Virus record (IMG/VR): IMGVR_UViG_3300006118_000020
Coordinates: 1 to 37,423 of that record
DNA: 37,423 nt
From: a virus
Taxonomy: Duplodnaviria; Caudoviricetes
Strand: one strand, 5' to 3'
The notes under the pieces were generated by a model. That model made no database searches. It was not told the origin of the DNA and saw only the letters and a program-made list of their open reading frames with translations. Numbering within the stretch: the stretch's first letter is position 1; each line of letters begins with the position of its first letter. Below, one piece after another: positions 3,090-36,688 of this stretch. The translations under genes were made by a program, and so were the position numbers.

Positions 3090-3524
3090 TTAACTCAAAC
3101 TAGCTCTTAACATCCACGCAAATTTCTTATGTTGACGGATACGATCTTGTGCAAAATTTGCAATATCGTCGTGTCCTTCTTCAGTCGCAACAACTTCTAA
3201 TTTTCTATAACTATTTTCCATATGCTCTTGACCTTCAAGAGCAAATTCTAATAAACTTGTTGCATCAGTGCCAAGTGCAAGTGTATCAGCTAAATCAGCC
3301 TTACTTAATATCTCATTAATAGTTTCTGGTGCAGTAACATTCAATGCACGAATTAGTTCACCCAAATCATCTTGAATACTTTCGCTGTCTTCATAAATCT
3401 TTTGCAATAGTTTATGCCAACCATAAAAGTTTTCACCAGTAATGTTAAAGTGGATACTATGTGCTCTGTAACTGTTTACAAAGTTATCACTAAATGTTTC
3501 TGTTAATTGTTCAATTGTGTTCAT
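3090..3524 (-). CDS. dps: Dps/ferritin-like DNA-protection protein
   Basis: HSIHFNITGENFYGWHKLLQKIYE...DDLGELIRAL and C-terminal HKKFAWML match the Dps signature (H-[W/F]-N-x-x-G-x-x-F-x-x-x-H...D-x-x-x-E). Confidence 0.85.
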   Translation of the reverse strand: MNTIEQLTETFSDNFVNSYRAHSIHFNITGENFYGWHKLLQKIYEDSESIQDDLGELIRALNVTAPETINEILSKADLADTLALGTDATSLLEFALEGQEHMENSYRKLEVVATEEGHDDIANFAQDRIRQHKKFAWMLRASLS

Positions 3525-13419: not shown

Positions 13420-13559
13420 TTAACTGAGTAGAACCGCTGAGTAATTTGCTAAAATGAATCTTTTTTTTTATAATTTTTTTTATAAAAATATTTTTTTTTA
13501 ATTTAGTCAAAAAAAAGCGTTTTACTCAGTGGTTCTACTCAGCATTTCTACTCAGTTAA
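13420..13559. promoter_or_regulatory. Putative replication origin: inverted iteron arrays around an A/T-tract core
   Basis: CTGAGTA at 13424 and 13437; TACTCAG at 13523, 13536 and 13549 (13-bp period); ~75-bp nearly pure A/T core; immediately downstream of the helicase gene. Confidence 0.75.
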
Positions 13560-16847: not shown

Positions 16848-17333
16848 ATGGCAAAGTTCAAAATCAAAAATGTAAAATTCGTTTTTACGCCCAAGAATCA
16901 TCGTGGCAGTGATTGGGCAACTCCCCCAGATGTTAAAATAGGATTCGGTAATCGTCACACTGATGAGTATAATCAGTATATGTTCCATAGTAATTATATT
17001 GGAGTACTGTTTAGTGATTACTTACATGGTGATCCAAGAAAATATAAAAAGTCAGCAAAGTTTACTGAGAGTGAAGCAATGATATTGTTGCTCAAGTACC
17101 TTGAAGATAACTTAAAAGAAGCACGAAAAACCAAAAAAGAACTAGACAAAATATTACTAGATGTTAAAAACTTTAATACTAACTCACATGCACAAAAGAC
17201 CATGTGGGAATATTCTATTAGTGTAAACAAAAGAGAATTGGCGTACAATATAGCAGCTTGTAAGATTTGGAGAAAGAAAGTTCGTGTAATAAAGAAAAGC
17301 CCAGAGTATCTATGGGAGCAATTACTTAAATGA
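16848..17333 (+). CDS. Hypothetical basic protein (161 aa), likely early-expressed
   Basis: SD plus sigma70-like promoter; ATGA coupling to the next gene. Confidence 0.7.
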   Translation: MAKFKIKNVKFVFTPKNHRGSDWATPPDVKIGFGNRHTDEYNQYMFHSNYIGVLFSDYLHGDPRKYKKSAKFTESEAMILLLKYLEDNLKEARKTKKELDKILLDVKNFNTNSHAQKTMWEYSISVNKRELAYNIAACKIWRKKVRVIKKSPEYLWEQLLK

Positions 17334-17635
17334 GCAAAATCAGATGTTATGGATTGAATGAGTTATTAAACATGCGTGATGTCAAAACTGTGATACCAGA
17401 TAGTTTAGTTGAAACTTTTGTTGAATATAATGTACATTGTTTTCAGCCACCAACTACGCCTGGTAGTGGTCGTGGTCGTAGAACCAGAGCGTTCTATGTA
17501 ACTACTAATGAAGATTTTGATAGATGGGTAAAACTAAACAACACCATTGCTATGTTGAAAAACTTACCTATTGCGAAAATAAAGTATAAAGAATATCCAC
17601 AACCTGTTGTAGACCCATACTTTACATTTATTTAA
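17330..17635 (+). CDS. Hypothetical protein (101 aa)
   Basis: Coupled to 16848-17333. Confidence 0.65.
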   Translation: MSKIRCYGLNELLNMRDVKTVIPDSLVETFVEYNVHCFQPPTTPGSGRGRRTRAFYVTTNEDFDRWVKLNNTIAMLKNLPIAKIKYKEYPQPVVDPYFTFI

Positions 17636-17641
17636 AAGATC

Positions 17642-17782
17642 GCCCAGAAGTCATGCTATATAGGAATTTAACATGCAATGACAACGGTGCATAACTCCTG
17701 GGCAAAAAAATTGTGAGACAGACAATCATAACGGAAATTAACGAATGGCATATCAATTAATAAATTAACTGCTGTCTCACAA
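17642..17782 (-). ncRNA. Tandem hairpin small RNA(s) whose loops are antisense to SD+ATG regions
   Basis: Stems 17711-21/17772-82 (11 bp, perfect) and 17642-56/17689-703 (15 bp with 2 G-U on the minus strand); ATAAATA at 17786-92 directly upstream; U7 linker. Confidence 0.65.
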
Positions 17783-17784
17783 AA

Positions 17785-18012
17785 CTATTTATTCCTTTTC
17801 AAACTTTGATTGTCAATTTTATTTTCAATACGCACTAATTGATTTTGTAGGTCAGCTAGTTTCTTATCCATATTAGTTGTGTTAGCCATATTCACAGCTA
17901 CATTCTTGTCAATATTTTCTACTTTTTGACTCATGTTTAAGTATCCAGTGCCACCTAGTGTAGTTGCACCCACTAGTAACCATGTTAGTTGTTGCGTTGT
18001 AAAGTCTATCAT
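17785..18012 (-). CDS. Holin-like membrane protein (single TM plus coiled coil)
   Basis: LTWLLVGATTLGGTGYL hydrophobic segment followed by heptad repeats; last gene of the tail-fibre operon. Confidence 0.45.
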   Translation of the reverse strand: MIDFTTQQLTWLLVGATTLGGTGYLNMSQKVENIDKNVAVNMANTTNMDKKLADLQNQLVRIENKIDNQSLKRNK

Positions 18013-28385: not shown

Positions 28386-28411
28386 AAAAAGGGGCCCGAA
28401 GACCCCTTTTT
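28386..28411 (-). terminator. Intrinsic terminator with C(UUCG)G loop
   Basis: Minus strand reads AAAAAGGGGTC-TTCG-GGCCCCTTTTT. Confidence 0.85.
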
Positions 28412-28534: not shown

Positions 28535-28550
28535 TTCATTTCCTTGTATT

Positions 28551-28572
28551 AAAAAGCCCTTTCGGGCTTTTT
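28551..28572 (-). promoter_or_regulatory. Leader hairpin AAAAAGCCC-GAAA-GGGCTTTTT (attenuator or boxB-like)
   Basis: Perfect inverted repeat between the promoter and the SD of the moron ORF. Confidence 0.65.
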
Positions 28573-28590
28573 ATTTATTACCGTATTAGT

Positions 28591-28630: not shown

Positions 28631-28654
28631 AAAAAAGGCTCCGAAGAGCCTTTT
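28631..28654 (-). terminator. Capsid-gene intrinsic terminator with C(UUCG)G loop
   Basis: Minus strand reads AAAAGGCTC-TTCG-GAGCCTTTTTT, ~20 nt after the capsid stop. Confidence 0.9.
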
Positions 28655-36663: not shown

Positions 36664-36688
36664 AAAGAGAAGCATTGTGCTTCTCTTT
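36664..36688 (-). terminator. 11-bp hairpin (terminator or leader hairpin)
   Basis: AAAGAGAAGCA-N3-TGCTTCTCTTT; ATAAATA abuts it at 36689-36695. Confidence 0.65.

Follow-up and report, generated by a model that had tools for sequence, protein, structure and literature searches.

The locus examined here raises the question of what a pair of hairpins, which lie between two converging genes of a small phage and display the complement of translation start sites in their loops, might do, and against which messages. The window, meaning the whole stretch of DNA analysed (37,423 nucleotides), is a whole phage record of about 37 kb from a podovirus-like freshwater phage, with a 112-nt repeat at a distance of 37,020 nt. 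The original prediction was that the hairpins form a late-induced, modular array of antisense guides against foreign translation starts. The features of the locus are as follows.

17785..18012, minus strand: holin-like gene directly upstream of the element (phrog_689, E 5e-4)
17792-17786, minus strand: ATAAATA, 3 nt before the first stem
17786..17791, minus strand: TAAATA, predicted late promoter of the jumbo-phage (gp55-like sigma) type, invariant in seven aligned two-hairpin copies
17780, minus strand: putative transcription start, G at +6, suggested by base bias
17711..17782, minus strand: hairpin 1, an 11-bp perfect stem (17782-17772 with 17721-17711) and a 50-nt loop (17722-17771), the candidate guide
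17722..17755, minus strand: segment of loop 1 with predicted complementarity to the translation start of the jumbo tail sheath
17722-17732, minus strand: leader block of loop 1
17733-17742, minus strand: SD/spacer block of loop 1
17745-17755, minus strand: start-codon block of loop 1
17704..17710, minus strand: U-rich linker (U7), with four invariant U columns in the seven two-hairpin copies
17642..17703, minus strand: hairpin 2, a 15-bp stem with two G-U pairs (17703-17689 with 17656-17642) and a 32-nt loop (17657-17688)
17330..17635, plus strand: convergent ORF of 101 aa, no family, the other boundary and outside the RNA

Anatomy, strand and copies of the two-hairpin element

The anatomy described in the original prediction, from the ATAAATA and the 3-nt gap through the 11-bp stem and the U7 to the 15-bp stem, was verified in full with its coordinates. 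TAAATA overlaps the last codons of the holin-like gene, and the loop of hairpin 2 carries anti-SD and anti-AUG sequence in the same design as loop 1. For the region 17630-17800, the folding energy of the minus strand is -52.2 kcal/mol (z -5.94), a stability equalled by 0 of 200 shuffles, against -34.8 kcal/mol (z -2.86) for the plus strand. Loop 1 is itself predicted to fold in part; a small apical loop would present the anti-AUG and an internal loop the anti-SD, and both motifs would stay largely free of pairing. The 5' end of the RNA most likely lies at 17780, which would leave the first stem with effectively 9 bp at its base. The window gave 0 matches at gathering score to Rfam 15.

Scans of the fetched loci yielded 26 distinct first hairpins, including that of the window. 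Twenty-one were chosen by eye from 33 candidates with TAAATA plus a stem, and five were added from a later scan, in which four further candidates were dropped. The 12 of the 33 that were dropped lay inside genes or had no anti-SD/anti-AUG loop; one of them, L013, was nevertheless kept in the start-site count given below. Copies beyond the seven aligned ones were found by requiring TAAATA upstream. The element was present in 5 of 10 near-complete relatives that had been fetched blind to its presence. The two-hairpin form behind the holin-like gene occurs in seven copies, and their alignment shows changes on both sides at 13 of 21 pairs, with compensatory changes at 7 of 9 stem pairs in hairpin 1 and 6 of 12 in hairpin 2. 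Across all 26 elements the pairing of the first stem is kept with different sequences, and the loops are diverse, with lengths of 31 to 66 nt. An anti-SD plus anti-AUG core was found in 21 of the 26 loops, partly due to selection. Covarying stems with variable loops, as would be expected of the proposed guide scaffold, are thus present at the homologous loci.

The choice of the minus strand, which the original prediction had based on G-U pairs, was borne out by the folding energies and by one position of hairpin 2, which is G-U in four copies, A-U in two and G-C in one, and pairs only on the TAAATA strand. The overall excess of G-U pairs (27 vs 2) is biased by the finder and was excluded as evidence. 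The two hairpins are real and lie on the minus strand.

Several copies deserve separate mention. One element on an 8.7-kb contig (L086:3001-3079, minus strand) shares its 10-bp first stem with the window but differs from it in the loop and in the flanking genes, which hints from sequence that the element may move between phages. In one clade, a gene of about 150 aa is inserted between the holin-like gene and the element (L034:16912-17367, L052:15430-15882, L384:8770-9222), and the L384 copy of this gene has an HNH domain. The loops of L061, L062 and G032 contain two anti-SD motifs and no anti-AUG core, and their best alignment to leaders of the MQ family extends over the promoter sequence itself. 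Comparison with cultured phages by blastn returned short chance matches only, and the two that were inspected lay inside genes. Neither the element nor its family is described in the literature searched; the supplementary tables of PMC10690425, with 10,006 candidate viral RNAs, are outside that scope and could contain the hairpin.

Strong stems located between two converging stop codons, with a U7 behind hairpin 1, would also be expected if these were plain bidirectional terminators, or processing or stability hairpins between convergent genes, with loops drifting freely. An intrinsic terminator is expected to have a GC-rich stem, a loop of 3-8 nt and a U tract, whereas the loops here measure 50 and 32 nt in the window and 31-66 nt over the 26 elements. 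No consensus terminator or sigma-70 promoter was called at the element, and a separate terminator-like hairpin is located downstream in 17 of the 26 copies, though none was found behind the copy of the window. Plain hairpins would also leave the loop cores and the sheath match described below unexplained, and we regard this reading as highly improbable. The plus strand itself might instead be functional through translated mini-ORFs, ribosome decoys or a sponge for CsrA, whose motif is GGA. The SD-AUG and GGA motifs on that strand, downstream of a plus-strand ORF, are compatible with such roles. The encoded peptides, however, range from 2 to 57 aa with no conserved sequence, five of the 26 elements encode none at all, the G-U exchanges of hairpin 2 pair only on the minus strand, and the promoter motif points the other way. 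A plus-strand function is the least probable of all the readings weighed here.

A predicted late-type promoter in a phage with no recognised sigma factor

Besides terminase, portal and major head protein, the recognised genes of the window specify a tail fibre, a protein resembling ferritin, and a primase with a helicase-like partner. The window showed no recognisable sigma factor, DNA polymerase, integrase or endolysin, and a scan of selected proteins from relatives turned up no integrase either. Of 567 candidate stretches in IMG/VR, 565 were confirmed as relatives by their capsid protein, and the nearest cultured phages are about 25-28% identical in this protein. This family of small phages, with genomes of about 33-40 kb, appears to encode a whole podovirus-like virion together with a primase-helicase. 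A host search in a species-genome collection returned only two short MAG contigs. The holin-like protein is common to small phages and jumbo phages (L110, L113, L133; contigs up to 367 kb).

Three other features of the window are recorded here. Nested inverted repeats with a 12-14 bp unit and a very A/T-rich core at 13420-13559, adjoining the primase/helicase genes, look like a replication origin, judging from sequence. The Ferritin/Dps-like protein is encoded inside the virion gene block (3090-3524, minus strand), and a similar gene occurs in the relatives listed. Short perfect hairpins at 28386-28411, 28550-28573, 28633-28654 and 36664-36688, three of them clustered behind the capsid gene, are probably terminators.

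TAAATA is found at most 70 nt upstream of 11 of 32 gene starts in the window, compared with 4.2% of random minus-strand windows. In T4, late promoters have the sequence TATAAATA and depend on gp55. The role of gp55 is treated in PMC7892883. The jumbo phages considered here are T4-like; one of 360 kb (G052) has the late sigma, sheath, tube, portal and a gp23-like capsid. An ATG follows TAAATA at 4 nt in 63 of their genes and at 5 nt in 103, and this distance suggests leaderless mRNAs starting at about +6. In the elements, a purine is present at +6 in 20 of 22 cases and a pyrimidine-purine step at +5/+6 in 19 of 22, against a purine frequency at +6 of 0.49 among 852 jumbo TAAATA sites; the +6 purine is the first base of the stem. 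The spacing of the element after TAAATA therefore matches the late promoter of the 360-kb T4-like jumbos. The element itself was absent from the two complete jumbos (0 of 848 TAAATA sites).

The late sigma phrog_12791 was found in none of 21 small genomes and in four of six jumbo records, both complete ones included; a jumbo gene for the late sigma lies at L200:4203-5096. Since the small phages use TAAATA and lack a late sigma of their own, we infer that their late genes and the RNA are switched on by a co-infecting jumbo. That the jumbo-type TAAATA recurs throughout the genomes of the window and 20 relatives (G004-G050), which have no late sigma, suggests that the whole small-phage family may be a class of helper-dependent, self-packaging satellites. 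The late induction originally proposed is supported to this extent by a late-type TAAATA with jumbo spacing and start-site bias, while transcription itself, putatively from 17780 and only during late infection by the jumbo, is a prediction.

Predicted targets of the loops

The target set comprised sheath loci, of which 80 were kept of 599, and about 1.5 Mb of jumbo records. The pool used for duplex energies contains 2,429 jumbo gene starts, 55 of them sheath, and is therefore sheath-enriched; 179 families were ranked. An initial duplex scan of long windows in two jumbos was swamped by shadow ORFs and GC-rich noise and was discarded. The nearest cultured sheaths, at 41-51% identity, are those of Vibrio 2.275.O, fHe-Yen9-04, PA5oct/Paride and PBECO4.

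In its plus-strand reading, loop 1 agrees with the sheath leader over separate blocks: 9-11 nt that precede the SD, the SD with its spacer (10 nt), and the region of the start codon. Pairing requires bulges of 5 nt in the target and 2 nt in the guide. By alignment, the best two of 1,624 starts belong to sheath; duplex energy puts sheath at the first seven places among 2,429 starts and at 10 of the first 12, with a best value of -33.2 compared with a mean of -13.2 (sd 4.0). When the anti-SD and anti-AUG cores were held fixed, the sheath mean and maximum were reached by three and one of 200 shuffles in a first test, by none of 200 in a second, and by none of 100 when scored by duplex energy. As a null model, shuffling suits A/U-rich leaders imperfectly, and the elements share a common ancestry. 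A three-block pattern of loop 1 matched 22 sites in IMG/VR, namely 21 sheath starts and the element itself; this pattern is post hoc, having been written after the alignment was known. In L239 the matched leader block lies downstream of the TAAATA of the sheath gene, and the block is therefore within the sheath mRNA. The sheath leaders of L214-L293 also possess a small hairpin that is conserved and whose arms covary; it precedes the start codon by about 25 nt and lies just outside the region of guide pairing.

The sheath match extends to some relatives of the element. Sheath is among the top five of 179 families for 8 of the 26 first loops and ranks 7th to 9th for three, while for the other 15 it ranks 19th to 152nd, which amounts to no sheath match. 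For elements with other stems, the sheath mean was reached by 0 (L014), 1 (L094), 2 (L022), 5 (L130) and 5 (L174) of 200 shuffles. The element of G004, found after the hypothesis was formed, has sheath starts at all top five positions of 2,429, and its scores were reached by 1 and 2 of 300 shuffles; a clear sheath match was present in only one of the five late-found elements. In the two complete jumbos, neither of which need be the cognate helper, the loop of the window places sheath only at rank 66 of 414 and 14 of 417. Pieces of sheath 5' ends were present in all four of the examined sequencing runs that contain the window, which is weak support because two of the runs may be the source of the window and these jumbos are common.

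Two other matches of loop 1 were rejected. A start of the "MAY..." type had appeared plausible, and the MAYTIIRS family is top by mean of the 179 families, but its z is 1.2 with four members, and none of 15 large-phage records contains the simple pattern. In a tail gene of the relative L372, a 19-nt near-match attributed to chance lies in a coding region and does not fold; that it scores almost as high as sheath in blastn (30.8 against 32.7 bits) counts against the sheath match.

The main rival to a sheath-directed guide is a generic anti-initiation RNA, in which only the anti-SD and anti-AUG cores matter and many strong jumbo late mRNAs are dampened, the sheath leader being a typical strong one. 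The frequency of the core among the loops, in part a product of selection, agrees with this, as does the fact that many elements match no single family. The MAxTRTH family (117-149 aa) also ranks first in pooled z when all first loops are combined (6.2, above 4.9 for sheath), is the top blastn match for five guides and gives low shuffle counts for L094, L117, L152 and L165, so that many loops may be multi-target; its predicted fold is of low confidence and uninformative. For the loop of the window, however, MAxTRTH is unsupported by energy (27 of 100 shuffles). Core-preserving shuffles fall short of the sheath score for the window and several relatives, the 141 non-sheath starts that share these cores average 25.1, below the 31.2 of sheath, and L022 uses another register in its pairing with the sheath leader. 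On this balance we consider a purely generic action unlikely.

Regulation in cis was weighed against the phage's own gene starts. The hairpins would then form the 3' end of the holin or late mRNA and mask ribosome-binding sites of the phage itself, as the position directly behind the holin-like gene could suggest. The best score of loop 2 against own starts was reached by 14 of 200 shuffles, and the terminator loops of G013 and G048 are complementary to their own early "MTK" starts. For loop 1, in contrast, the best own-gene score was reached by 85 of 200 shuffles (11 to 190 of 200 over 13 guides tested), and the stem has ahead of it a promoter-like motif of its own, with a bias at the start site. 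The longest matches of either loop to the rest of the genome are 10-11 nt, in agreement with the earlier view that only short fragments match. Self-regulation is in our opinion quite improbable.

No clear target was found for loop 2; nine families were tested and none is claimed. The mean and maximum were reached by 4 and 6 of 200 shuffles for MKSL, 6 and 27 for tube, and 23 and 45 for MQ. MKSL is top in a pooled test of seven second loops (z 4.7), and its PA5oct homologue is annotated as a structural protein; the MQ homologue is annotated as a virion structural protein. A metagenome pattern of loop 2 gave 103 distinct sites; 22 of these have an ORF of 45 aa or more, and no family predominates.

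In relatives with a single hairpin, the loop of the downstream terminator is antisense to a start codon. Seven of 17 terminator loops read ATGAC(T/C)AAA on the other strand under different stems (L026, L034, L052, L061, L165, G012, G013), and three more have an anti-ATGGC-like loop (L022, L062, G032). The jumbo MTKKL family, which is often leaderless, has 11 of 15 jumbo starts of the ATGACT type. It resembles a cluster with the small-terminase domain PF11053 in 23% of its members (score 0.97), which offers a lead that MTKKL is possibly the small terminase subunit; a model of MTKKL gave no PDB match. Loop 2 and the anti-AUG terminator loops of relatives are likely further guides against other jumbo late genes.

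Targeting of foreign start sites, as originally proposed, thus gains support for loop 1 and the jumbo tail sheath beyond core-preserving shuffles, but not for loop 2, nor for the 15 of 26 related loops with no sheath match. The modular array of guides is likewise partly supported by the covarying stems, the variable loops and the predicted foreign phage target of loop 1.

Proposed action and comparison with known systems

We consider it probable that the element is a helper-triggered two-hairpin antisense RNA of a satellite-like phage, transcribed by the late sigma of a jumbo, with loop 1 blocking translation of the jumbo tail sheath. During co-infection, the jumbo late sigma would transcribe the RNA from 17780, and the stems would protect it and display the anti-SD and anti-AUG seeds. 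Loop 1 would then cover the SD and start codon of the sheath mRNA and reduce translation of a very abundant helper tail protein. Tail production by the helper would fall during assembly of the small phage's particles. The benefit would consist of ribosomes and amino acids diverted to the virion of the small phage, and of fewer tailed helper particles.

A broader reading, which we put forward tentatively as possible rather than probable, is that a large overlooked family of freshwater podoviruses comprises virion-encoding satellites of GAP32/PA5oct-like jumbos. The late sigma would serve as an infection sensor that fires a reprogrammable antisense array, with the stem as scaffold and exchangeable multi-target loops, against sheath and further late proteins, among them likely the small terminase subunit, and the guides would evolve to track helper leaders. 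If the proposed action on sheath is true, the element would be an RNA weapon in phage-phage conflict with a target readable from sequence, and the guides would identify the giant phage parasitised by a small uncultured phage. The 565 capsid relatives in one scan point to a possible class of self-packaging jumbo-phage satellites in fresh water. A stem plus variable loop behind a helper-specific promoter would also provide a simple scaffold for conditional translational silencing.

Among known arrangements, icaR-type pairing of 5' and 3' UTRs is similar in that a hairpin loop behind a gene is antisense to a ribosome-binding site. The target there is the gene's own, whereas here the mRNA leaders of the phage are unmatched and the match is to another phage.

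The original prediction called the element conceptually like SviR. This small RNA of the Vibrio cholerae PLE is predicted to occlude the ribosome-binding site of ICP1 gp120 and to lower its translation; according to the consulted part of that account, it derives from a chromosomal satellite, targets a gene of the capsid operon and also regulates transcripts of the PLE itself (10.1101/2022.04.08.487710). The likeness, a small RNA encoded by a parasite, here a presumed one, against the ribosome-binding site of a helper morphogenesis gene, holds at the level of predicted pairing. The scaffold, carrier and target differ. The carrier has its own capsid, portal, terminase and tail fibres, the RNA has a promoter of the helper late type and a covarying stem with a variable loop, and the target is the tail sheath; a second seed on own transcripts was not found (85 and 14 of 200 shuffles for loops 1 and 2). 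The gene content of the carrier is not PLE-like. The element may therefore be said to work like SviR in our analysis, but it is not filed as a member of the SviR family.

Satellites of the PICI, PLE and P4 types have no virion genes and integrate into the chromosome, whereas the present phage possesses its own capsid, portal, terminase and tail fibre and was represented in the host search by the two short MAG contigs only. Closer parallels are the Mulch and Flayer systems, described as satellites with their own packaging genes (PMC10690885), and the cf-PICIs, which have their own capsid and packaging genes and need a helper for other functions (PMC12772148), so far as the consulted parts of both sources describe them. 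Own capsid and packaging genes are shared; dependence on a helper in other respects is putative for the small phages. The small phages differ in their size of about 33-40 kb, in what is apparently a whole podovirus-like virion plus primase-helicase, and in that they seem to borrow late transcription. The genomic island I55, which is integrated and is packaged and transduced by the jumbo phage JPTI55, is likewise a mobile element exploiting a jumbo phage, and differs in that the consulted part of its description includes no virion of its own and no antisense RNA (PMC12772148). The same part of that source presents jumbo-phage satellites as newly found.
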